Counted from the first letter of the stretch, positions 1-14,244 are shown. The stretch: DNA of 14,244 nt from a virus (IMGVR_UViG_2859777919_000005); one strand, 5' to 3'. Notes: generated by a model from the letters alone, not told the origin. Translations and numbers: made by a program.

Positions 1-491
1 CTACGATAACCGCGCATTCAACATGGCTATCTGTTCGTCGTTCATGTCATCAATCCACATACCGTAAATTTCATACACCATTTGCGCAGTTTCATGCCCC
101 ATCTGGCTGGCTATAAATGCCGGGTTCGCTCCTGCCGTCAACAGCCAGCAGGCAAAAGTATGTCGCGTATGGTACGGATTACGGCGGCGAATACCAGCAC
201 GTTTTACTGCTGCATTCCATCTTGCACCCAAACTGCTTACCGAGTAATAAGGTTTCTGTTTTTCGTTACACACCCTGGGCATGAAAACAAAATGCAGTTT
301 TTGCTTTTCAGTTCTGCCGTACTCCCGATGATAAAAAGTGATTTCGCTTTTGCGATGATGCCCGGTCAGTTTGTATTGCTCCTTCAGTGCTTCAAGAGCC
401 GGCTGCAGTAATGTTACCGTCCGGATCCCGGCATTTGTTTTTGGGGGACCGAACATATCAAGTATCGTCAGGTTTCTTCTGACATTCACAA
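1..491 (-). pseudogene. Phage tyrosine integrase, C-terminal catalytic fragment (N-terminus removed by IS600)
   Basis: Minus-strand frame is open from the IS600 junction at 491 to a TAG stop at 3..1. The translation contains YHTRHTFACWLLTAGANPAFIASQMGHETAQMVYEIYGMW, the R-H-x-x-R...Y catalytic region of tyrosine recombinases. Only about 163 codons remain of an expected 350-400. The MPVHL N-terminus in the ORF track is IS600-derived (TTG pseudo-start). Confidence 0.8.
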
Positions 492-3315: not shown

Positions 3316-3681
3316 ATGGCACTGACGAAAAAACAACGTGCAGAACTGCGCATGAAGTTCGGTGGTCGCTGCGCTTATTGCGGCTGCGAACTTGGCGAAA
3401 AGTGGCATGCAGACCATGTAAAACCGGTCATTCGTTTTGATGGAAATATGCTTCACCAGGAACGTGACGATATATCCAACATGGTACCAGCATGCCACCC
3501 ATGCAATCTGCACAAGCATTGCAGTAGCCTGGAAGATTATCGACGAATTATCAGTGATGGTCGTCGTGAATTCCTTGCGTCCGGGAAAGGCAAAGCGCTG
3601 GTTCGTATGGGATTGGTTGAAATGAAATCTGACCCGGTTGTGTTCTGGTTTGAAAAATATCAAGAAGGGGCTACGGCATGA
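3316..3681 (+). CDS. HNH endonuclease (121 aa)
   Basis: SD AAGGAAAG then ATG. Translation has CAYCGCEL...HADHVKPV...NMVPACHPCNLHK, a zinc-binding CxxC pair around the H-N-H catalytic motif. Confidence 0.8.
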   Translation: MALTKKQRAELRMKFGGRCAYCGCELGEKWHADHVKPVIRFDGNMLHQERDDISNMVPACHPCNLHKHCSSLEDYRRIISDGRREFLASGKGKALVRMGLVEMKSDPVVFWFEKYQEGATA

Positions 3682-4343
3682 CCACTATTACCAAAGAGCG
3701 ACTGCAATGGCTGGCTAACATTTCTGGCCGCGATGATATTGACGATATAGACGGCGGTGAAATTCGTGAACTGGCGCTTATCGCTCTGGCATCACTGGAA
3801 GCAGAGCCTGTAGCGGAATGCATTGTTGAAGATGGGGGCATGTGTATTGACGGGTTCGGTGAGTATGTGGGTCACTCGCTGCCTGATGGAATGCATGAGC
3901 TTTATGCTGCCCCGCGAATGCGACAACCTGATGGATGGAAAGCCGTAGCTGTAGCGTGGAAGGTGACGTTTACTCAAGTTGACCAGGAATCTAATACGTT
4001 CACTGCTATATATTTTGACAAAGCGGAAGTTGAGTGTTGGGTACGACTGCATAAAGCATGTGATTTTCGGGCAGATATAACACCGCTTTACGCAGCGCCG
4101 GCAGTGCCGGTTGCAGTAAACGACGACATGGCTTACGCATTCCATCACGCACTGTCAGATTCATCGCTTGGCTCTGATGAAATCGAAGAAATTAAAACCG
4201 GTTTGCGTGCTGCCTTTGCCAACGTCACTATCCAACCAGAGCCGATAGTGCCGGATGAAATCGGGCCAAACGATAGTAATACGTTTGATTATGTTGATGG
4301 CTGGAACGCCTGCCGCGCTGCCATGCTTAAGGGAGATAAATAA
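3678..4343 (+). CDS. Hypothetical prophage early-region protein (221 aa) with duplicated LYAAP motif
   Basis: Start overlaps the HNH stop (ATGA), with SD AAGGGG upstream. Acidic protein containing two LYAAP-containing segments (MHELYAAPRMRQPDGWKAVAV and ITPLYAAPAVPVAV). No family recognised. Confidence 0.7.
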   Translation: MTTITKERLQWLANISGRDDIDDIDGGEIRELALIALASLEAEPVAECIVEDGGMCIDGFGEYVGHSLPDGMHELYAAPRMRQPDGWKAVAVAWKVTFTQVDQESNTFTAIYFDKAEVECWVRLHKACDFRADITPLYAAPAVPVAVNDDMAYAFHHALSDSSLGSDEIEEIKTGLRAAFANVTIQPEPIVPDEIGPNDSNTFDYVDGWNACRAAMLKGDK

Positions 4344-4708
4344 TGATTAATCGAACCAAACTGGAGCACATTCTCGAATATGCCAGGCAGCAGAAATGTA
4401 TTGGGCAACTTTGTAAAATTCCACCAGGAGATATGGTTGAAATCGTGGAAATGGCCATGCGTAAGGCTGGCAACTCTCCGGTAGCTCCGGCTGGCTGGAT
4501 AAGCTGTAGTGATGCAGTTCCTGCTGAATATTGCGATGTGATTCTTCTCGATGATCTCGGGAATGTATTCCCCGGTTCCTGGGATAAGGTTTTTTGCCCC
4601 ACTCGTGGCGGGAATAAGATGGCTTTTGTGGACAAAGACGGCGTTGAAGTAGAGAGCTCAACTCACTGGATGCCGCTACCGGAACCACCGCAGGAGGTGA
4701 ATCAATGA
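4343..4708 (+). CDS. DUF551-family prophage protein (121 aa)
   Basis: Start overlaps the upstream stop (TAATG), with SD AAGGGAGA. The C-terminal ...THWMPLPEPPQE matches the W-x-PLP-x-PP tail I recall for DUF551 proteins of enterobacterial prophages. Confidence 0.7.
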   Translation: MINRTKLEHILEYARQQKCIGQLCKIPPGDMVEIVEMAMRKAGNSPVAPAGWISCSDAVPAEYCDVILLDDLGNVFPGSWDKVFCPTRGGNKMAFVDKDGVEVESSTHWMPLPEPPQEVNQ

Positions 4709-4788
4709 CCTGGCCTGAGGCATTCACCACGGTAGGAATTGCGATGGCGGTGGCGCTGGTGGTGTATTCGATTTGCCGTTGGGGTTAA
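4705..4788 (+). CDS. 27-aa hydrophobic peptide (MTWPEAFTTVGIAMAVALVVYSICRWG), hypothetical
   Basis: Strong SD AGGAGGTGA 7 nt upstream; ATG overlaps the DUF551 stop (ATGA); a single predicted transmembrane helix; followed directly by an intrinsic terminator. Below the ORF-track length cutoff. Confidence 0.5.
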   Translation: MTWPEAFTTVGIAMAVALVVYSICRWG

Positions 4789-4798
4789 CAAACAAAAA

Positions 4799-4824
4799 CC
4801 CCGGATTGATGGTCCGGGGTTTTT
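4799..4824 (+). terminator. Rho-independent terminator ending the plus-strand operon
   Basis: CCCCGGA (4799-4805) / TCCGGGG (4813-4819) perfect 7-bp GC stem with a 7-nt loop, followed by TTTTT; preceded by an A run, so it could act in both directions. Confidence 0.75.
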
Positions 4825-5162
4825 GAAGGAAACAAAACAGAAACAGCAATTGCCGTTACCTGTTGTTACCATGGCAAGTAAACGTATCTCAGGCGAGCGC
4901 ATTGCGCCGTTCTGACGCAGATAAACTAGCCTGGATAGATGGTGCTGGCAATAAAAAATAGCGTTTTCTTATCGGTGTCGGTAAGATTGCTGCGGGTGCT
5001 TGAGGCTGTCTGCCTCGGGTATGTCACTGTAAGGCAGACAGAGAAAAGCCCCAGTTAACATTACGCGTCCTGCAAGACGCTTAACATTAATCTGAGGCCC
5101 AATCTATGTCTCACAAATGTAGGTTAGCCTCTTACGTGCCGAAAGGCAAGGAGAAGCAGGCT

Positions 5163-5318
5163 ATGAAGCAGCAAAAGGCGATGTTAATCGCCCTGATCGT
5201 CATCTGTTTAACCGTCATTGTGACGGCACTGGTAACGAGGAAAGACCTCTGCGAGGTACGAATCCGAATCGGCCAGACGGAGGTCGCTGTTTTCGTAGAC
5301 TACGAATCTAGAGAGTAA
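5163..5318 (+). CDS. hok: Hok/Gef-family type I toxin (51 aa)
   Basis: MKQQKAMLIALIVICLTVIVTALVTRKDLCEVRIRIGQTEVAVFVDYESRE has an N-terminal transmembrane helix and the conserved TRKDLCEV...GQTEVAVF core. It is closest to HokD/RelF and HokC/Gef as I remember them. The ORF-track extension to 5106 is in frame but probably not the start; SD AAGGAGAAG precedes the ATG at 5163. Confidence 0.85.
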   Translation: MKQQKAMLIALIVICLTVIVTALVTRKDLCEVRIRIGQTEVAVFVDYESRE

Positions 5319-5380
5319 GAGTGACCAGGCGGGAGAGTAATCTCCCGCCACCTTTGATGTGTCAGGCATCCTCAACGCAC

Positions 5381-5410
5381 CCGCACTTAACCCGTTTCGG
5401 CGGTTTTTTT
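5381..5410 (+). terminator. Probable 3' end/terminator of the hok mRNA (abutted by IS1)
   Basis: GC-rich segment CCGCACTTAACCCGTTTCGGCGG followed by T7 at 5404-5410. The stem is imperfect. Preceded by a perfect 9-bp hairpin GGCGGGAGA-GTAA-TCTCCCGCC (5328-5349) right after the hok stop. Confidence 0.4.
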
Positions 5411-5425
5411 GGTAATGACTCCAAC

Positions 5426-5928
5426 TTATTGATAGTGTTTTATGTTCAGATAATGCCCGATGACTTTGTCATGCAGCTCCACCGATTTTGAGAACGACAG
5501 CGACTTCCGTCCCAGCCGTGCCAGGTGCTGCCTCAGATTCAGGTTATGCCGCTCAATTCGCTGCGTATATCGCTTGCTGATTACGTGCAGCTTTCCCTTC
5601 AGGCGGGATTCATACAGCGGCCAGCCATCCGTCATCCATATCACCACGTCAAAGGGTGACAGCAGGCTCATAAGACGCCCCAGCGTCGCCATAGTGCGTT
5701 CACCGAATACGTGCGCAACAACCGTCTTCCGGAGACTGTCATACGCGTAAAACAGCCAGCGCTGGCGCGATTTAGCCCGACATAGCCCCACTGTTCGTCC
5801 ATTTCCGCGCAGACGATGACGTCACTGCCCGGCTGTATGCGCGAGGTTACCGACTGCGGCCTGAGTTTTTTAAGTGACGTAAAATCGTGTTGAGGCCAAC
5901 GCCCATAATGCGTGCAGTTGCCCGGCAT
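5426..5928 (-). pseudogene. insB: IS1 insB, frameshifted (copy 2)
   Basis: The InsB reading frame is split into two overlapping ORFs (5426-5791 and 5668-5928) by the 1-bp deletion. Confidence 0.8.
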
Positions 5929-6122
5929 CCAACGCCATTCATGGCCATATCAATGATTTTCTGGTGCGTACCGGGTTGGGAAGCGGTGTAAGTGAACTGC
6001 AGTTGCCATGTTTTACGGCAGTGAGAGCAGAGATAGCGCTGATGTCCGGCAGTGCTTTTGCCGTTACGCACCACCCCGTCAGTAGCTGAACAGGAGGGAC
6101 AGCTGATAGAAACAGAAGCCAC
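5847..6122 (-). CDS. insA: IS1 InsA (91 aa), copy 2
   Basis: Identical protein to copy 1 insA. Confidence 0.85.
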
Positions 6123-6283
6123 TGGAGCACCTCAAAAACACGATCATACACTAAATCAGTAAGTTGGCAGCATCACCTTTTGTCTCTATGTTGATATAAC
6201 CGTTTGTACTTATAAACCTTGAGGTAGCCTGAGTTTAACGGACACTCCTTCCTGAAATAGAATGGCATCAGAAGGAGCTAATA

Positions 6284-6586
6284 ATGAGCAGAAAAACCCA
6301 ACGTTACTCTAAAGAGTTCAAAGCCGAAGCTGTCAGAACGGTTCTTGAAAATCAACTTTCGATCAGTGAAGGCGCTTCCCGATTATCTCTTCCTGAAGGC
6401 ACTTTAGGACAATGGGTTACCGCCGCCAGAAAAGGGCTCGGTACTCCTGGTTCCCGCACGGTGGCTGAACTGGAATCTGAAATTCTGCAACTGCGTAAGG
6501 CGTTAAATGAAGCTCGCCTTGAGCGAGATATATTAAAAAAAGCAACAGCGTATTTTGCACAGGAGTCGCTGAAAAATACGCGTTAA
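6284..6586 (+). CDS. IS600 OrfA (100 aa), copy 2
   Basis: Full-length OrfA; differs from copy 1 at one residue (L versus P in RTVLENQ). Confidence 0.75.
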   Translation: MSRKTQRYSKEFKAEAVRTVLENQLSISEGASRLSLPEGTLGQWVTAARKGLGTPGSRTVAELESEILQLRKALNEARLERDILKKATAYFAQESLKNTR

Positions 6587-6623
6587 TCGAACAATGGCGA
6601 CAACAATTTCCCATTGAAGCGAT

Positions 6624-7438
6624 GTGTCAGGTATTTGGTGTATCCAGGGCGGTTATTACAACTGGGTACAGCATGAACCCTCAGACAGAAAACAAAGTGA
6701 TGAGCGGCTAAAACTGGAGATTAAGGTGGCACATATCCGCACTCGCGAAACATATGGAACCCGGCGGCTCCAGACGGAGCTGGCAGAGAATGGCATCATC
6801 GTTGGTCGTGACCGACTGGCACGTCTTCGTAAGGAGCTAAGGCTACGCTGTAAGCAGAAACGCAAGTTCAGAGCGACTACGAACTCGAACCACAATCTGC
6901 CAGTTGCGCCAAATCTGCTGAACCAGACGTTCGCTCCTACAGCACCAAATCAGGTCTGGGTGGCGGACCTGACGTATGTTGCCACACAGGAGGGATGGTT
7001 GTACCTCGCTGGCATCAAAGATGTTTATACGTGCGAAATTGTCGGCTACGCCATGGAGAGCGCATGACAAAAGAGCTGACAGGTAAAGCCCTGTTTATGG
7101 CGCTCAGGAGCCAGCGCCCACCTGCCGGGCTAATCCACCACTCTGATCGAGGTTCACAGTACTGCGCATACGATTACCGGGTCATACAGGAGCAGTCTGG
7201 TCTGAAAACATCAATGTCGCGTAAAGGTAACTGTTACGACAACGCTCCGATGGAAAGCTTCTGGGGAACGCTGAAAAATGAGAGCCTGAGCCACTATCGT
7301 TTTAATAACCGGGATGAAGCCATCTCAGTAATACGGGAATACATTGAGATTTTCTACAATCGTCAGCGTCGTCACTCTCGTCTGGGGAATATCTCCCCGG
7401 CAGCCTTCAGGGAAAAATATCATCAGATGGCTGCTTAA
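6624..7438 (+). pseudogene. IS600 orfB, frameshifted (copy 2)
   Basis: OrfB sequence is split across two overlapping ORFs (6624-7067 and 6995-7438). Confidence 0.8.
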
Positions 7439-7531
7439 AAAAAGAACAAATGGTAGTGTCCGCTATTGCCAGTACACCTCACACTCTATCCAACAAACCA
7501 CCCACAGTTAATCGGAATAAAAGCAGAGTGC

Positions 7532-7663: not shown

Positions 7664-7738
<75 letters not shown>

Positions 7739-7741
7739 ATA

Positions 7742-7817
<76 letters not shown>

Positions 7818-7819
7818 GC

Positions 7820-7896
7820 TGGCCCACCACCGAGGACTCGAACCTCGCACCGTCAACTTAGAAGGTTGATGCTCTATCCGGATGAGCTAGTGGTGG
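7820..7896 (-). tRNA. tRNA-Arg (anticodon UCU), argN-like
   Basis: Reverse complement CCACCACTAGCTCATCCGGATAGAGCATCAACCTTCTAAGTTGACGGTGCGAGGTTCGAGTCCTCGGTGGTGGGCCA; acceptor CCACCAC/GTGGTGG, anticodon stem TCAAC/GTTGA, loop CTTCTAA, T stem CGAGG/CCTCG, encoded CCA. The unusual C1:G72 start makes the exact 5' boundary less certain. Confidence 0.8.
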
Positions 7897-7897
7897 T

Positions 7898-7974
7898 TGG
7901 TGGCCCTTGCTGGACTTGAACCAGCGACCTGGCGATTATGAGTCGCTCGCTCTGACCAACTGAGCTAAAGGGCC
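7898..7974 (-). tRNA. tRNA with CAU anticodon, ileX/ileZ-like (Ile2, lysidine-dependent) or Met
   Basis: Reverse complement GGCCCTTTAGCTCAGTTGGTCAGAGCGAGCGACTCATAATCGCCAGGTCGCTGGTTCAAGTCCAGCAAGGGCCACCA; anticodon loop CTCATAA. Overall close to E. coli ileX as I recall it, hence probably an AUA-reading tRNA-Ile2. Confidence 0.8.
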
Positions 7975-8062
7975 GGAGGCAGAATAATAACCATATGTCA
8001 TCACATCTGCAAACTCATCTGACCACCAGCACGTTTAACGTCCTGTGCCGTTTTTCAGGTAT

Positions 8063-8084
8063 AAAAAAACCCGCATAAAGCGGG
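8063..8084 (-). terminator. Rho-independent terminator downstream of the Q-like gene (tR'-like)
   Basis: On the minus strand: GC hairpin GCGGG-TTTAT-CCCGC (plus coordinates 8070-8084) followed by U7 (complement of A7 at 8063-8069). It lies about 80 nt downstream of the Q-like stop and about 90 nt upstream of the tRNA array, the position of tR' in lambdoid late operons. Confidence 0.7.
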
Positions 8085-8163
8085 CTCTTTCAAATGTCCA
8101 TGTCTGCTATTCGCCTCGCGGTACAGCTTTGCGAAGCGTACAAGAATTGAAGCAGTTTTTACG

Positions 8164-8718
8164 TCAAAAAGCAATAACTTTTTTCTCTATACCAAAAGCC
8201 ATAACCATTGGTTTGTACAAAATAAATTCTGCCACCTTTAGCCAATGCTCAATGCGTCTTTCACAGGTTCTTAAACTCCATTTCGGGTGTGCATCATTCA
8301 GCAGTTCAGCCATTTTGCGTTTGGTCATCCCCCGCCCCTCATACCGTTGCCGAAGGACGCTAATCAATCCTGGATGCTCTGCCAGCACCTCACTTATGAC
8401 CCGATCAATACATAACGCCTCTGCATCAGTACAATGCGCCAGCCAGCTCTTTTGCTTACCGTTAATCATATCCCGCAAAAAAGCCTCAAGTTCAGACTTG
8501 TTCAGACCTGCTTTTTTCATCCTCCGGAGCGCCTCGTTAATTGCCGTTTTTGTCAGCTTTTTAGAGGTCAACATCAGGTTAAACATATTCCCCGTCTTAC
8601 CGCCACCAATATACGACCAGCGCCCCCACATACGTAGTTTTCCCTGAATCCAGACACTTTCCAGCGTGGTGAGACGAAGGTGTTCTCCGCTTTTTCCTGT
8701 ATTCGTTGGGTAAATCAT
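8164..8718 (-). CDS. Probable late-gene antiterminator Q (184 aa)
   Basis: Start chosen at ATG 8716-8718 (SD AAGGAGGG 8 nt upstream; ATGA overlap with the upstream gene's stop) rather than the longer ORF-track start. Assignment rests mainly on position: last gene of a nin-like block, followed by an intrinsic terminator and phage tRNAs. No catalytic motif recognised; the family is not verified. Confidence 0.55.
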   Translation of the reverse strand: MIYPTNTGKSGEHLRLTTLESVWIQGKLRMWGRWSYIGGGKTGNMFNLMLTSKKLTKTAINEALRRMKKAGLNKSELEAFLRDMINGKQKSWLAHCTDAEALCIDRVISEVLAEHPGLISVLRQRYEGRGMTKRKMAELLNDAHPKWSLRTCERRIEHWLKVAEFILYKPMVMAFGIEKKVIAF

Positions 8719-9005
8719 AAATATCCCTCCTTTCTCCAGATTTCTTGTGTGCGAAAAACACCTTCTGCATGCATCAGGCGTAATTCTTCTTTGGTGTAAT
8801 CGCTGGTTTTTACCCGCCCGTCGATTAAATCGTGGCACGAGCTACAGGCAATCGCTGCCTGCATATCGTGTGGCTTTATCGCTGTTCCGCACGTTCCCGC
8901 CAGTCGGTAATGCGCCAGCACAGACGTTTCCGGATCGTGATTGCAGTAGCCAGGAATTCTGACGGTGCACATCTGCCCCCGCGCCGCTTTACGTAAATCC
9001 ACCAT
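8715..9005 (-). CDS. DUF1364 (YbcO-like) nin-region protein (96 aa)
   Basis: MVDLRKAARGQMCTVRIPGYCNHDPETSVLAHYRLAGTCGTAIKPHDMQAAIACSSCHDLIDGR... with the Cys/His pattern I recall for YbcO of the DLP12 nin region. Start overlaps the upstream stop (TAATG). Confidence 0.7.
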   Translation of the reverse strand: MVDLRKAARGQMCTVRIPGYCNHDPETSVLAHYRLAGTCGTAIKPHDMQAAIACSSCHDLIDGRVKTSDYTKEELRLMHAEGVFRTQEIWRKEGYL

Positions 9006-9604
9006 TACGCAAACTCCAGCAGCTGCGCGGCCACATTTTCGACTTGTTCCGGAGAGGAAAATTTACGGAACAGAATCCAGTTCCACAGCACATTCAGAAC
9101 AGATTTATAAACCTGCTGAAACTCGGTTTCGTCCATATTCGCAAAAGCGATGGATTTTGCCCGACGCCCGCGGCTACCGTCCGGATAAAAATGTTCGGTG
9201 TAAAATCCAGCCTGAATGGTTACCCACTCGCGAAAAGCCTCAAACGACTTTAGCAATGCCGTATCCCGGGTTCTGCGTGTCGCAACTGTATTCAGATATT
9301 GCTCTGCGGCTTCGCTCAGAGCTGGCGTATGTTCCCGACCTACTGATTCGCACAGGTAATCAACGAAACCAGACAGCAGTTCTCGTTCGCGAGGCGTGAT
9401 CGCCCCACCGACCGGAGTCCAGTAATCGAATCCCAGTTGCAGGAGTTTGAAAAAACGCTTGTGGAATGCGTAGTTACGCACACGCTTAAAGTCTGCGTGT
9501 ATCCACTCACCTGTTTTGATTTGATGCAGAAAATCGCAACTCTCCGGCGTCGCCGGGAGAAGTAATCCGGAAGAGGTTTGTTTGATCAGTTGTATATGCG
9601 CCAT
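9005..9604 (-). CDS. Nin-region protein, possibly DUF1367 family (199 aa)
   Basis: ORF MAHIQLIKQTSSGLLLPATPESCDFLHQIKTGEWIHADFKRVRNYAFHKRFF... with SD GGAGAA upstream; translationally coupled to the DUF1364 gene. Family assignment from memory only. Confidence 0.45.
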   Translation of the reverse strand: MAHIQLIKQTSSGLLLPATPESCDFLHQIKTGEWIHADFKRVRNYAFHKRFFKLLQLGFDYWTPVGGAITPRERELLSGFVDYLCESVGREHTPALSEAAEQYLNTVATRRTRDTALLKSFEAFREWVTIQAGFYTEHFYPDGSRGRRAKSIAFANMDETEFQQVYKSVLNVLWNWILFRKFSSPEQVENVAAQLLEFA

Positions 9605-9675: not shown

Positions 9676-9893
9676 CTAACAGGATGCTCTGACTCGCAAT
9701 TCATCCAGCAGTTTATCATTTCCCATAATGTCACTTACCCTCATCGGTAAAAAAATTGCCTTTCGACCATTACGATACATCATTGATTTTTTGGTTTCAG
9801 GGAAGTAATCCATTTCGACTATAACTGACAGGTCATCACGACGTATGACTGCGTATTTACTACTAAATAGTTTCTTTATTTTTTCCACGATGC
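9676..9893 (-). pseudogene. C-terminal 72 codons of an AT-rich gene truncated by IS600 copy 3
   Basis: Minus-strand frame runs from the IS600 junction (9893) to a TAG at 9678-9676: ...SIVEKIKKLFSSKYAVIRRDDLSVIVEMDYFPETKKSMMYRNGRKAIFLPMRVSDIMGNDKLLDELRVRASC. Lies just upstream of the nin genes. No family recognised. Confidence 0.4.
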
Positions 9894-9936
9894 TGAGGTG
9901 TACTGGCAATAGCGGACACTACCATTTGTTCTTTTT

Positions 9937-10749
9937 TTAAGCAGCCATCTGATGATATTTTTCCCTGAAGGCTGCCGGGGAGATATTCCCCAGACGAGAG
10001 TGACGACGCTGACGATTGTAGAAAATCTCAATGTATTCCCGTATTACTGAGATGGCTTCATCCCGGTTATTAAAACGATAGTGGCTCAGGCTCTCATTTT
10101 TCAGCGTTCCCCAGAAGCTTTCCATCGGAGCGTTGTCGTAACAGTTACCTTTACGCGACATTGATGTTTTCAGACCAGACTGCTCCTGTATGACCCGGTA
10201 ATCGTATGCGCAGTACTGTGAACCTCGATCAGAGTGGTGGATTAGCCCGGCAGGTGGGCGCTGGCTCCTGAGCGCCATAAACAGGGCTTTACCTGTCAGC
10301 TCTTTTGTCATGCGCTCTCCCATGGCGTAGCCGACAATTTCGCACGTATAAACATCTTTGATGCCAGCGAGGTACAACCATCCCTCCTGTGTGGCAACAT
10401 ACGTCAGGTCCGCCACCCAGACCTGATTTGGTGCTGTAGGAGCGAACGTCTGGTTCAGCAGATTTGGCGCAACTGGCAGATTGTGGTTCGAGTTCGTAGT
10501 CGCTCTGAACTTGCGTTTCTGCTTACAGCGTAGCCTTAGCTCCTTACGAAGACGTGCCAGTCGGTCACGACCAACGATGATGCCATTCTCTGCCAGCTCC
10601 GTCTGGAGCCGCCGGGTTCCATATGTTTCGCGAGTGCGGATATGTGCCACCTTAATCTCCAGTTTTAGCCGCTCATCACTTTGTTTTCTGTCTGAGGGTT
10701 CATGCTGTACCCAGTTGTAATAACCGCTCATACACCAAATACCTGACAC
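9937..10749 (-). CDS. IS600 orfB, copy 3 (270 aa, GTG start, altered N-terminus; probably non-functional without orfA)
   Basis: ORF identical to copy 1 OrfB after residue 10; the N-terminus is shifted by the 4-bp deletion. Confidence 0.5.
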   Translation of the reverse strand: MSGIWCMSGYYNWVQHEPSDRKQSDERLKLEIKVAHIRTRETYGTRRLQTELAENGIIVGRDRLARLRKELRLRCKQKRKFRATTNSNHNLPVAPNLLNQTFAPTAPNQVWVADLTYVATQEGWLYLAGIKDVYTCEIVGYAMGERMTKELTGKALFMALRSQRPPAGLIHHSDRGSQYCAYDYRVIQEQSGLKTSMSRKGNCYDNAPMESFWGTLKNESLSHYRFNNRDEAISVIREYIEIFYNRQRRHSRLGNISPAAFREKYHQMAA

Positions 10750-10786
10750 ATCGCTTCAATGGGAAATTGTTGTCGCCATTGTTCGA

Positions 10787-11066
10787 TTAACGCGTATTTT
10801 TCAGCGACTCCTGTGCAAAATACGCTGTTGCTTTTTTTAATATATCTCGCTCAAGGCGAGCTTCATTTAACGCCTTACGCAGTTGCAGAATTTCAGATTC
10901 CAGTTCAGCCACCGTGCGGGAACCAGGAGTACCGAGCCCTTTTCTGGCGGCGGTAACCCATTGTCCTAAAGTGCCTTCAGGAAGAGATAATCGGGAAGCG
11001 CCTTCACTGATCGAAAGTTGATTTTCAAGAACCGTTCTGACAGCTTCAGCTTTGAACTCTTTAGAG
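10787..11066 (-). pseudogene. IS600 orfA, 5'-truncated (copy 3)
   Basis: OrfA residues from SKEFKAEAV onward are present; the first 8 codons and the left inverted repeat are missing. Confidence 0.8.
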
Positions 11067-11739: not shown

Positions 11740-11803
11740 TGAGGTAGCCTGAGTTTAACGGACACTCCTTCCTGAAATAGAATGGCATCAGAAGGAGCTA
11801 ATA

Positions 11804-12136
11804 ATGAGCAGAAAAACCCAACGTTACTCTAAAGAGTTCAAAGCCGAAGCTGTCAGAACGGTTCTTGAAAATCAACTTTCGATCAGTGAAGGCGCTTCCC
11901 GATTATCTCTTCCTGAAGGCACTTTAGGACAATGGGTTACCGCCGCCAGAAAAGGGCTCGGTACTCCTGGTTCCCGCACGGTGGCTGAACTGGAATCTGA
12001 AATTCTGCAACTGCGTAAGGCGTTAAATGAAGCTCGCCTTGAGCGAGATATATTAAAAAAAGCAACAGCGTATTTTGCACAGGAGTCGCTGAAAATACGC
12101 GTTAATCGAACAATGGCGACAACAATTTCCCATTGA
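11804..12136 (+). pseudogene. IS600 orfA with frameshifted 3' end (copy 4)
   Basis: 110-aa ORF: OrfA residues 1-96, then a frameshifted tail IRVNRTMATTISH. Confidence 0.65.
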
Positions 12137-12142
12137 AGCGAT

Positions 12143-12957
12143 GTGTCAGGTATTTGGTGTATCCGGGGCGGTTATTACAACTGGGTACAGCATGAACCCT
12201 CAGACAGAAAACAAAGTGATGAGCGGCTAAAACTGGAGATTAAGGTGGCACATATCCGCACTCGCGAAACATATGGAACCCGGCGGCTCCAGACGGAGCT
12301 GGCAGAGAATGGCATCATCGTTGGTCGTGACCGACTGGCACGTCTTCGTAAGGAGCTAAGGCTACGCTGTAAGCAGAAACGCAAGTTCAGAGCGACTACG
12401 AACTCGAACCACAATCTGCCAGTTGCGCCAAATCTGCTGAACCAGACGTTCGCTCCTACAGCACCAAATCAGGTCTGGGTGGCGGACCTGACGTATGTTG
12501 CCACACAGGAGGGATGGTTGTACCTCGCTGGCATCAAAGATGTTTATACGTGCGAAATTGTCGGCTACGCCATGGGAGAGCGCATGACAAAGAGCTGACA
12601 GGTAAAGCCCTGTTTATGGCGCTCAGGAGCCAGCGCCCACCTGCCGGGCTAATCCACCACTCTGATCGAGGTTCACAGTACTGCGCATACGATTACCGGG
12701 TCATACAGGAGCAGTCTGGTCTGAAAACATCAATGTCGCGTAAAGGTAACTGTTACGACAACGCTCCGATGGAAAGCTTCTGGGGAACGCTGAAAAATGA
12801 GAGCCTGAGCCACTATCGTTTTAATAACCGGGATGAAGCCATCTCAGTAATACGGGAATACATTGAGATTTTCTACAATCGTCAGCGTCGTCACTCTCGT
12901 CTGGGGAATATCTCCCCGGCAGCCTTCAGGGAAAAATATCATCAGATGGCTGCTTAA
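12143..12957 (+). pseudogene. IS600 orfB, frameshifted (copy 4)
   Basis: OrfB sequence is split across two overlapping ORFs (12143-12598 and 12514-12957). Confidence 0.8.
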
Positions 12958-13000
12958 AAAAAGAACAAATGGTAGTGTCCGCTATTGCCAGTACACCTCA

Positions 13001-14244
13001 GCCGTCTGGCGATACCCGGCGCATTCGGCTTTGGGTGTGCTTTTCTGCCTGAAGATGTTATCCGTTTTGACACTAAGAGTGATTTCCTGGCCTGGGTAAG
13101 GAATGCGCTGCCAGGTGAATATTCCGTTGCTGGCCCCTACGACATCATCATACCCGACACACGGTTTGAAGGGGTGCTCAGCATCCGGTGGACTGATGCA
13201 CGCCCTGAGACAACAGAACCGAGGTACAGAGCCAAATCCCTTACTTTTTACGGCATTAACGGCCCCATTTATCACACCCGCTACTGCTACTGGCCCATAT
13301 CCAGACTGACTGGCTGGGTGAAAATAAATATAACCACAGAAGATATTATTTACAGAATCGTGGCGAGCTCTGTCTGCAACAGATGGGGAGACCCTGACAT
13401 TGGCGGGCTGATTATTGCTGCGTACCAGGGAGAAGCTGACGGTGATAAAGTCATCAGACTTGTCAGGGGGCAGTCATACAGAGGCTCACGACTGGGACCG
13501 GTGGGGATTTCAGTGCCCAGTACTCCCACCGGAACGTATATAGCATCCCCACAATTTTCATTACGGGATGTTCAGAGCATTCATTACCGGGGTCATATAG
13601 CGCCCTGTCCGGGGTGCCGGATGCTCATGTCTCTGGCGCAATGCCCGGGCTTTTTATTCGCACATCGTGAGGAATGCACCGTGGAAATTAAAAAAATCAT
13701 TAATCCCCGTTATACCGAAAGTGGCGCAGTAGACTGTGACGTTTTTTTTGACGACAGGGACCAGGCAGTCCCCTACACAGCCACCGCTGATGATGTCGCA
13801 CCGACGGGTCAGCGAATCTGGCAGGAACTGCAAAGTGGCAAATGGGGTGAGATAGCCCCATTCACTGTGACACCAGAAATGCTGGAAGCGGCCAGAGAGG
13901 CCAGACGTCAGGGAATTGAAGCATGGCGCACAGAACAGGAGGCGAAGCCGTTCACGTTTGAATGGAACGGTCGTATCTGGAATGCTGGCCCCAACTCACT
14001 GGGCCGCCTTTATCCGGTGGTAATGGCTGCGAAATCCGACATTGTACGGGACGTGATGACGTGGGGTGATGCCGATAATCAGCAGGTGAAACAGTCGATG
14101 CCGGAACTGGAAGAACTGGCGGCAGCAATGGCTCAGGCACAGGTTGAGCGCAATGACGAGATTTATCGCCGTCAGCGGGAGCTGAAGGAAGAGCTGAATA
14201 GTCTGAAGGATTTGAATTCGGTTAGGAATTTTATCGTGGAATAA
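13001..14244 (+). pseudogene. C-terminal 414 codons of an unidentified protein, N-terminally truncated by IS600 copy 4
   Basis: Long open frame from the IS600 junction to TAA at 14242-14244. The N-terminal part is Cys/Gly-rich and looks beta-rich (...YDIIIPDTRFEGVLSIRWTDARPETTEPRYRAKSLTFYGINGPIYHTRYCYWPISRLTGWVKINITTEDIIYRIV...); the last 60 aa are a charged, coiled-coil-like tail (...MPELEELAAAMAQAQVERNDEIYRRQRELKEELNSLKDL...). No family recognised; a phage tail-fibre distal domain is one guess. Confidence 0.6.

Follow-up and report, generated by a model that had tools for sequence, protein, structure and literature searches.

Here we present an analysis of a short open reading frame (sORF) in a 14,244-nucleotide (nt) stretch of viral DNA (IMGVR_UViG_2859777919_000005; hereafter the window). 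The sORF occupies positions 4705..4788 on the plus strand and comprises 27 codons followed by TAA (product MTWPEAFTTVGIAMAVALVVYSICRWG). Judged from its pattern of substitutions, it is a real gene under purifying selection, and its product, a predicted single-pass membrane microprotein with N-out/C-in topology, belongs to a widespread, unnamed phage microprotein family that is new among phage small membrane proteins. With moderate confidence, we read it as a phage gene for a single-helix inner-membrane microprotein that is made by coupled translation and that most likely acts by intramembrane helix packing.

Conservation of the sORF as a gene

The sORF starts at the very end of a plus-strand gene (4343..4708) for a 121-residue protein with a DUF551 domain (Pfam PF04448; named DUF551 domain-containing protein in RefSeq). 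Its ATG (4705–4707) shares nucleotides with the TGA of that gene (4706–4708), so that the two overlap as ATGA. Its Shine–Dalgarno (SD) sequence, AGGAGGTG (4692..4699, plus strand), lies within the final P-Q-E-V codons of the DUF551 gene, with a spacing of 7 nt between the end of GGAGG and the ATG. An earlier note on this DNA had described a 27-codon ORF with a strong ribosome-binding site and a start codon overlapping the DUF551 stop, and both features are present at these positions. The heptamer AGGAGGT at 4692–4698 is the sole copy in the window; about 1.2 copies would be expected by chance, so its mere presence is not significant and its position relative to the ATG is what counts. Local motifs of this kind prove nothing by themselves, and the case for a gene therefore rests on conservation and comparison.

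A set of loci without bias towards the peptide was obtained by anchoring on the neighbouring DUF551 protein. These loci contain 18 distinct nucleotide variants of the ORF, 16 of which retain the full 27-codon frame (one of them without a stop codon), and the other two have a stop at codon 3. The pooled ratio of non-synonymous to synonymous substitution rates (dN/dS, or omega) is 0.26 in the ORF frame versus 1.18 and 1.54 in the other sense frames. The set was enlarged by two DNA-pattern scans and further records to 249 loci, which correspond to 117 unique contexts (distinguished by 150-nt flanks) and 75 distinct ORF sequences; 115 of the contexts have a complete upstream flank. When the 63 intact variants are joined in a minimum spanning tree, 117 changes are synonymous and 111 non-synonymous (omega 0.30, binomial p=1.2e-18), and none of the 63 is open in another sense frame. 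The earlier note had named a lack of amino-acid conservation as grounds for rejecting the ORF; what is found is an omega of about 0.26–0.30, against 1.2–1.6 in the other sense frames. The amino-acid replacements are mild when read in the sense frame (mean BLOSUM62 of +0.06), whereas those in the codon-aligned antisense frame are radical (−0.75), a further point against an antisense gene.

The 27-codon ORF is intact in 99 of the 115 contexts, and its translation signals are retained with it. An SD-like tetramer is found in 111 contexts, with a GGAGG-to-start spacing of 7 nt in 72, and the 4-nt ATGA/GTGA overlap is kept in 94 (a 1-nt overlap occurs in 11). Ungapped identity to the window stays at background until about 45 nt upstream of the ORF, is high between about −18 and the stop codon, and returns to background directly after it. 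The flanks are very diverse, with 35 distinct 14-mers on the downstream side and 63 distinct 30-mers on the upstream side. Since homology is bounded by the SD and the stop codon, the conserved unit is the SD plus the ORF and little else. Two antisense ORFs, at 4702..4902 and 4347..4730, were considered and discarded, as their ends fall within non-conserved flanks.

Among the damaged copies, the Trp-3 codon TGG has been struck repeatedly (TGA, TAG, AGG and GGG) in near-identical backgrounds (L058, L066, L221 and other loci). Of the further damaged lineages, one has a 1-nt deletion and one an in-frame loss of W-P. The codon-3 knock-outs may represent ordinary prophage decay or, as a faint hint, a cost to the host.

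A widespread family with a common motif

Profile queries were built from a tandem-doubled alignment of the peptide and then from natural members. A word-seeded profile search of 5.8 billion proteins returned 197 clusters, all of 25–89 amino acids (aa), none of which has a relevant Pfam domain or a functional name (one has an unrelated PF14359 match). The named members come from E. coli, E. albertii, Shigella and Salmonella, alongside many unnamed metagenomic entries. A full HMMER scan of 1.84 billion representatives yielded 160 clusters at 50% identity, mostly of 25–45 aa with a few longer, and best profile scores of 72 bits (E=1.6e-15). Divergent members are found in metagenomic phage contigs, where they either neighbour genes for DNA ligase, ThyX and HNH proteins or are embedded in closely packed small ORFs; relatives that fall below 50% identity show no nucleotide similarity yet retain the length, motif and hydrophobicity.

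Members share the signature MxWPEAFxxVGxAxAxA, after which R or K comes near position 25. The N-terminal motif M-x-W-P-[E/D/Q]-A-[F/I/L] is common to 223 of the 257 proteins retrieved, and the MTWPEAF of the window peptide fits it. Among 119 non-redundant relatives, G11 is present in 118, A15 in 106, A17 in 97 and A13 in 87, and the alternate positions 12, 14, 16 and 18 are bulky (V/I, F/W/M, V/I/F and L/W/F, respectively). The window peptide conforms to this core (V10 G11 I12 A13 M14 A15 V16 A17, then R25) and, at 27 residues, to the natural length, which is mostly 23–45. No Pfam or NCBIfam family matches the peptide, and at E<=1 there is nothing besides subthreshold hits to KdpF (discussed below) and DUF883_C (14 bits versus a cut-off of 27). 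Longer relatives give no significant Pfam match, and PADLOC reports nothing. The only library family with a signal is phrog_4612, a 57-position profile with no function or name, to positions 33–54 of which residues 1–23 align weakly (E=0.019); it is probably the same frame called from an upstream start, as in the relatives P0018 and P0024.

The earlier note had proposed a TBLASTN check of conservation, and tblastn with the peptide found it in 94 phage records at 59–100% identity. These include 933W, VT2-Sakai, many Shiga toxin (Stx) phages, ArgO145, P22-like phages with ea-region genes and virulent Vequintavirinae. The sORF is present in 1705 of 5426 complete E. coli genomes (~31%), with up to seven copies per genome, and 163 of its places in these genomes are on plasmids of ~95 kb. 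E. coli O157:H7 EDL933 has four copies, one of them within NZ_CP008957.1:1901406–1901506. A contig scan with one restrictive peptide pattern, which says little on taxonomic range, gave hits in E. coli and Shigella flexneri and, beyond these, in just two short contigs; the latter, probably contaminants, bear the labels of a Segatella metagenome-assembled genome and of Xanthomonas pisi. The K-12 prophages CPS-53 (which has the DUF551 gene yfdS), Qin and Rac contain no copy, and ribosome profiling (Ribo-seq) data from K-12 are therefore inapplicable, at least for those regions. YfdT and YpdJ, encoded after yfdS in K-12, were compared with the peptide and are unrelated to it.

The view that the sORF is unannotated holds in part. 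It is skipped in the three RefSeq and five phage records inspected, but the deposits for some GenBank genomes do include the exact peptide, in entries such as AOM45384.1 and ASL59396.1, where it is named a 27-aa 'hypothetical' or 'bacteriophage' protein; a one-residue-class variant has been deposited as BAI35516.1. A literature search retrieved no paper that names the peptide, its strings or, in a relevant sense, the WPEAF motif, and the papers found on DUF551, on exo-xis and on phage small membrane proteins do not mention the ORF.

Predicted membrane helix and proposed role

The peptide is hydrophobic, with a grand average of hydropathy of 1.09. AlphaFold2, applied to the 30-aa relative P0112 with the family alignment, returned a single helix spanning residues 6–29 (predicted local distance difference test score of 88.7). 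The peptide is predicted to be a single hydrophobic helix long enough to span the bilayer. Across the family, the N-terminal seven residues contain 0.03 K/R and 0.88 D/E per protein, compared with 2.0 K/R from residue 21 to the end, with position 25 the commonest site of the first K/R. Under the positive-inside rule basic residues are cytoplasmic, and this charge asymmetry therefore predicts an N-out/C-in topology. The hydrophobic helix with a short basic/aromatic tail described in the earlier note is, at the level of prediction, supported.

For the product we infer membrane insertion, topology, small-residue packing and any effect on the host, and we propose the following course of events. 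Ribosomes ending at the overlapping TGA would re-initiate at the sORF ATG, aided by the GGAGG 7 nt upstream, so that translation would be coupled to whichever early gene precedes the sORF. The peptide would then place its acidic N terminus (MTWPEAF) at the periplasmic face and its basic/aromatic CRWG end at the cytoplasmic face. The alternating small residues G11, A13, A15 and A17 would create two flat faces for close helix–helix packing, and this packing could lead either to a self-assembled oligomer or to docking onto a host or phage membrane protein. Oligomer or docked complex alike would alter the host envelope during expression of the phage early operon.

The closest parallels are the small inner-membrane regulators KdpF (29 aa), AcrZ (49 aa), MgtS (31 aa) and MgrB (47 aa), which bind larger membrane proteins. 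Like the sORF peptide, they have one hydrophobic helix of ~25–50 residues and were overlooked by annotation; by analogy, the peptide most likely acts in the same manner, by binding larger membrane proteins. It is phage-borne and mobile, however, and is not tied as a fixed partner to one operon of the chromosome. In sequence it is unrelated to these regulators: the KdpF model TIGR02115 scores the peptide at E=0.024 and 14.7 bits versus a cut-off of 26.85. The idea of packing draws on the c-subunit of ATP synthase, in which the GxGxGxG motif of helix 1 (AxAxAxA in alkaliphilic Bacillus) gives very close packing in homo-oligomeric c-rings. The sORF family likewise has small residues at every second helix position, with G11, A13, A15 and A17 near-invariant. 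This is an analogy of motif without homology: the peptide is one helix and not a hairpin, and it has no ion-binding carboxylate.

Other small membrane peptides, of phage or SOS-induced origin, block host machines. LysM of levivirus M (37 aa) hits MurJ, the transmembrane domain of phiX174 E hits MraY and Caulobacter SidA (29 aa) hits the divisome. In common with the sORF peptide, these have a short single transmembrane helix that works within the membrane, with a conserved Pro or small residues near the interface. They differ in being lysis or checkpoint effectors with known targets, whereas the sORF lies in early or accessory arrays and its product has no sequence similarity to them. Holins and pinholins differ in location, the sORF being far from the lysis cassette with its endolysin and spanin genes. 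In a near-identical E. coli locus, the sORF sits among the early genes HNH, DUF4014 and DUF551, and the class II holin, lysozyme and lysis protein genes come ~4 kb further downstream, past a Q-like gene and tRNAs. In P22-like contexts, it is placed just upstream of DUF4222-xis-int.

Several points weigh against the reading of the sORF as a gene for a packing membrane helix. The two DNA patterns used for collection fixed codons 1–7 or 23–27 and so inflate apparent conservation at those codons; over codons 8–22, left unconstrained by the search patterns, omega is 0.39 (p=4.6e-9). Disrupted copies are present in 9 of the 115 contexts. In the antisense frame that shares wobble positions with the sORF, omega is likewise low (0.33) and 62 of the 63 variants are open, such that the statistics alone do not separate the two frames; we ascribe the low omega and the openness of this frame to the make-up of the sense peptide, in which Tyr occurs once and His and Gln are absent. 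The energy of membrane insertion is borderline, at +0.2 kcal/mol for the 19-residue window 6–24 on the Hessa scale. Conservation has no significant 100-degree helical periodicity (p=0.74 by positional entropy), and a single conserved helical face was accordingly dropped as a candidate. The packing idea has two sources, the alternation of small and bulky residues and the c-subunit analogy, and we hold it as an inference by analogy. Our searches found no Ribo-seq, mass-spectrometry or tagging data on translation or membrane localisation of the sORF; the accessible portions of the Sakai Ribo-seq supplements (PMC5597208) and of the supplements to an Enterobacteriaceae microproteome preprint (PMC11188072) hold no match to it.

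A bolder version of the helix-packing proposal is that the peptide exemplifies a class of phage early-gene microproteins whose near-invariant WPEAF...VGxAxAxA helices form a homo-oligomeric ring in the inner membrane, or wedge into a conserved host membrane machine, and thereby reprogramme the envelope during infection. We regard this as a long shot. If true, the outcome could be exclusion of superinfecting phage DNA, a disarmed membrane-bound defence effector or a tuned membrane potential, and the peptide would be a 'membrane switch' shared by temperate lambdoid and P22-like phages, phage-plasmids and virulent Vequintavirinae.

Single-helix small membrane proteins are increasingly recognized as regulators and are routinely dropped by annotation. 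Among them, the sORF is unusually common and unusually well backed by evolution alone, and its carriers include the Stx prophages of enterohaemorrhagic E. coli. Genes of the exo-xis/ea region of Stx phages influence the lysis–lysogeny decision, and the sORF is located within or adjacent to that region, beside Ea22-type genes; genetic analyses of this region that ignore the sORF may misattribute phenotypes. With a motif of ~15 residues, the family offers a compact system for studying phage early-region microproteins in the host membrane, and it could be added to gene-calling models.

Alternative explanations

The strongest alternative, with toxin-like features already raised in the earlier note, would make the peptide a small membrane toxin or similar to a viroporin: its helices would oligomerise into a pore or otherwise disturb the inner membrane, so that the cell is depolarised or killed upon expression of the early operon, in the manner of DinQ (27 aa) and TisB (29 aa); ShoB, Ibs, Hok and Ldr are further type I toxins. 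The 27-aa size, the hydrophobicity and the prophage or accessory location all match this class, the alternating small residues could support a homo-oligomeric bundle, the sORF often adjoins hok/sok, and the recurrent codon-3 knock-outs, together with the disrupted copies noted above, could reflect a cost to the lysogen. The anatomy of expression fits poorly, however. Type I toxins are made from their own tightly repressed mRNA, whereas the sORF has a consensus, unsequestered SD and operon-internal coupling, both conserved (94–111 of 115 contexts). At the gathering threshold, Rfam reports nothing at 4690–4830 that could serve as an antisense small RNA (sRNA) antitoxin (an undescribed sRNA would escape such a search), and the only RNA family nearby is the sok of the neighbouring hok, at 4994–5168. 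A pattern scan for sigma-70-like promoters found none on either strand in 4200–5500. The helix is rich in Ala, Val and Gly, and its core has no charged residue and few polar ones that could line a pore (0.32 polar residues per protein at positions 8–20). The high proportion of intact copies and the presence of up to seven in one genome also speak against a toxin, as does carriage in the early regions of virulent phages, in which early killing would be counter-productive. A toxin is possible, but on this evidence we think it unlikely.

Another explanation is that the peptide is a detachable membrane anchor, or stoichiometric partner, that tethers the upstream Ead/Ea22-like (DUF551) protein to the inner membrane. 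Within prophages of enterobacteria, an Ead/Ea22-like mosaic array always has the sORF as its last member, and the 4-nt overlap would suit equimolar synthesis. There are also rare in-frame fusions: P0142 (143 aa) matches Pfam Ead_Ea22 and has the peptide at its C terminus, and P0143 (206 aa), in which the C-terminal half is closely related, has it fused likewise. These fusions are singletons, however, found on 1–4 contigs. Moreover, at least six unrelated C-terminal domains are coupled to the same peptide, distant members follow unrelated genes (a YqeY-like protein or small unknown ORFs) and do not always overlap them, and most DUF551 genes precede other genes. A dedicated anchor is improbable on these grounds.

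We consider it highly improbable that the sequence of the peptide is irrelevant and that translation itself is what matters, either by shielding the 3' end of the early transcript from Rho and RNases or by modulating the terminator and read-through into hok. The stop codon is 5 nt before the extended stem of the downstream hairpin and 11 nt before its G-C core, a position from which a terminating ribosome would overlap the 5' arm, and two non-homologous terminator-like sequences occupy this same position in different contexts. Against this, an omega of ~0.3 with conservative replacements reflects selection on the amino-acid sequence, distant relatives share similarity at the protein level only, the sequence right after the stop is exchanged in 35 different ways, and most contexts have no terminator. 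Least probable of all is that the block is conserved as DNA (a recombination linker, or an antisense or sRNA element) and that the frame is open incidentally: lambdoid mosaic junctions do often carry conserved linkers, the block is exactly at a module boundary and the antisense frame is open as described above, but third-position bias and an omega well below 1 are seen in no frame other than that of the ORF and its wobble-sharing mirror, homology is delimited by the SD and stop codon of the sense strand, the antisense ORFs of the window start or end in non-conserved flanks, distant relatives retain the protein features in the absence of nucleotide similarity, and Rfam has nothing at the sORF.

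Interchangeable upstream partners

The upstream protein matches PF04448 over residues 51–117 (E=3.4e-19, 69.9 bits versus a cut-off of 22). The DUF551 domain is also found in variant V2 of Ea22 from Stx phages and in K-12 YfdS (PMC10834534). The coupling of the sORF to DUF551 asserted in the earlier note is borne out as far as the overlap and the SD are concerned, but it is no specific partnership: the DUF551 gene is an interchangeable neighbour and not an obligate partner. The unrelated C termini that precede the same sORF, at least six in number, are those of DUF551 (...PLPEPPQEVNQ), of a 131-aa zinc-ribbon/coiled-coil protein (...NIEQEVNR), of a 114-aa protein (...ISVEDILR), of an EaA-like protein (...KKKGMNQ) and of two others.

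Conversely, the DUF551 C terminus is conserved as HWMPLPEPPQEV(N/K)(Q/R)* and has about ten unrelated genes after it in different loci (window 4680–4708; loci L024–L081). Its PPQEV encodes GGAGG, so that the same nucleotides specify both the end of the protein and the ribosome-binding site of the next gene, which overlaps as ATGA. Because DUF551 ends couple in this way to about ten unrelated genes, the strong ribosome-binding site of the sORF is partly a general property of DUF551 gene ends. Joining of DUF551 and the peptide by programmed frameshifting was rejected on sequence grounds. The sORF reads in the −1 frame relative to DUF551, yet G AAU CAA U does not qualify as a slippery heptamer, and ribosomes slipping +1 at the DUF551 stop would read D-L-A-stop.

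Unrelated small hydrophobic ORFs also follow the DUF551 stop in some loci (41 aa, MMNKCNALLYAMVIGFGLAAG...; 31 aa; and 29 aa, MMPPVKVVIITLVMIVIARIMSGEVWWIW; loci L024, L027 and L056). The protein encoded upstream of DUF551 in the window (3678–4343; 221 aa) ends in ...DGWNACRAAMLKGDK. The same C-terminal module recurs in phage vB_EcoM_TH18, a virulent member of the Vequintavirinae (L084), as the end (...DGWNACRAAMLKKKGMNQ) of an 'EaA' protein whose gene couples directly to the sORF. Modules of the Ead/Ea22/EaA type are shuffled between virulent and temperate phages.

Sequences downstream of the sORF

A pattern scan identified an intrinsic-terminator hairpin, AAAAACCCCGG...CCGGGGTTTTT, at 4793..4825, starting 5 nt past the sORF stop. 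It has a CCCCGG/CCGGGG core and a T5 run, with an RNA folding energy of −23 kcal/mol (z=−5.75 relative to shuffles). As an A-tract is found on one side and a T-tract on the other, termination in both directions is possible, and the hairpin could be a bidirectional terminator. The earlier note had placed a terminator immediately after the sORF; it is there in the window, but only a minority of contexts have one. The window's downstream terminator sequence recurs in 7 of 110 contexts, and another, non-homologous terminator-like sequence takes the same position in ~6 more. The terminator is thus context-specific and outside the conserved module.

In ~28 of the 110 contexts, and also in phage 933W, a hok-type sequence is found directly 3' of the sORF stop, a recurrent adjacency of hok/sok. 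Other contexts have a DUF4222 gene and then xis-int, or a second small hydrophobic ORF. In loci L013 and L144 and their relatives, this second ORF, MSDDISLAMEGALAVIAVVGVYCLVVLLMERLGN, is ~35 nt past the sORF stop and has its own ribosome-binding site, AAGGAGGG. The deposited 74-aa proteins P0069 and P0102 are read-through fusions of the sORF peptide and this second small ORF.

Prophage setting of the window

A lambdoid prophage of E. coli FDAARGOS_944 matches the region at 99.8% identity; its genes run in the order DUF4014, HNH, the 221-aa protein, DUF551, an unannotated gap and Hok. The window is a degraded copy of such a prophage, an insertion sequence (IS)-riddled remnant of the kind typical of Shigella. 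It contains four identical copies of a ~1.26-kb IS3-family element (492–1755, 6220–7481, 9892–11066 and 11740–13002, in both orientations; orfA of 100 aa with HTH_Tnp_1 and orfB of 272 aa with rve) and two copies of IS1 (1893–2660 and 5409–6175). An intact hok/mok/sok toxin–antitoxin locus (4994..5318, plus strand) lies ~300 nt downstream of the sORF, with a 118-bit Rfam match to sok (RF01794) at 4994–5168 and a Pfam HOK_GEF match on the ORF at 5106–5318. On the minus strand, positions 7667–9604 hold DUF1367, YbcO, DUF1133 (a Q-like antiterminator) and four tRNAs. This block is inverted relative to the FDAARGOS_944 prophage and has inverted IS copies on its flanks, which suggests that the inversion was IS-mediated. 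The exact DUF551 protein of the window carries the names Shigella sonnei and S. flexneri in the protein collection.

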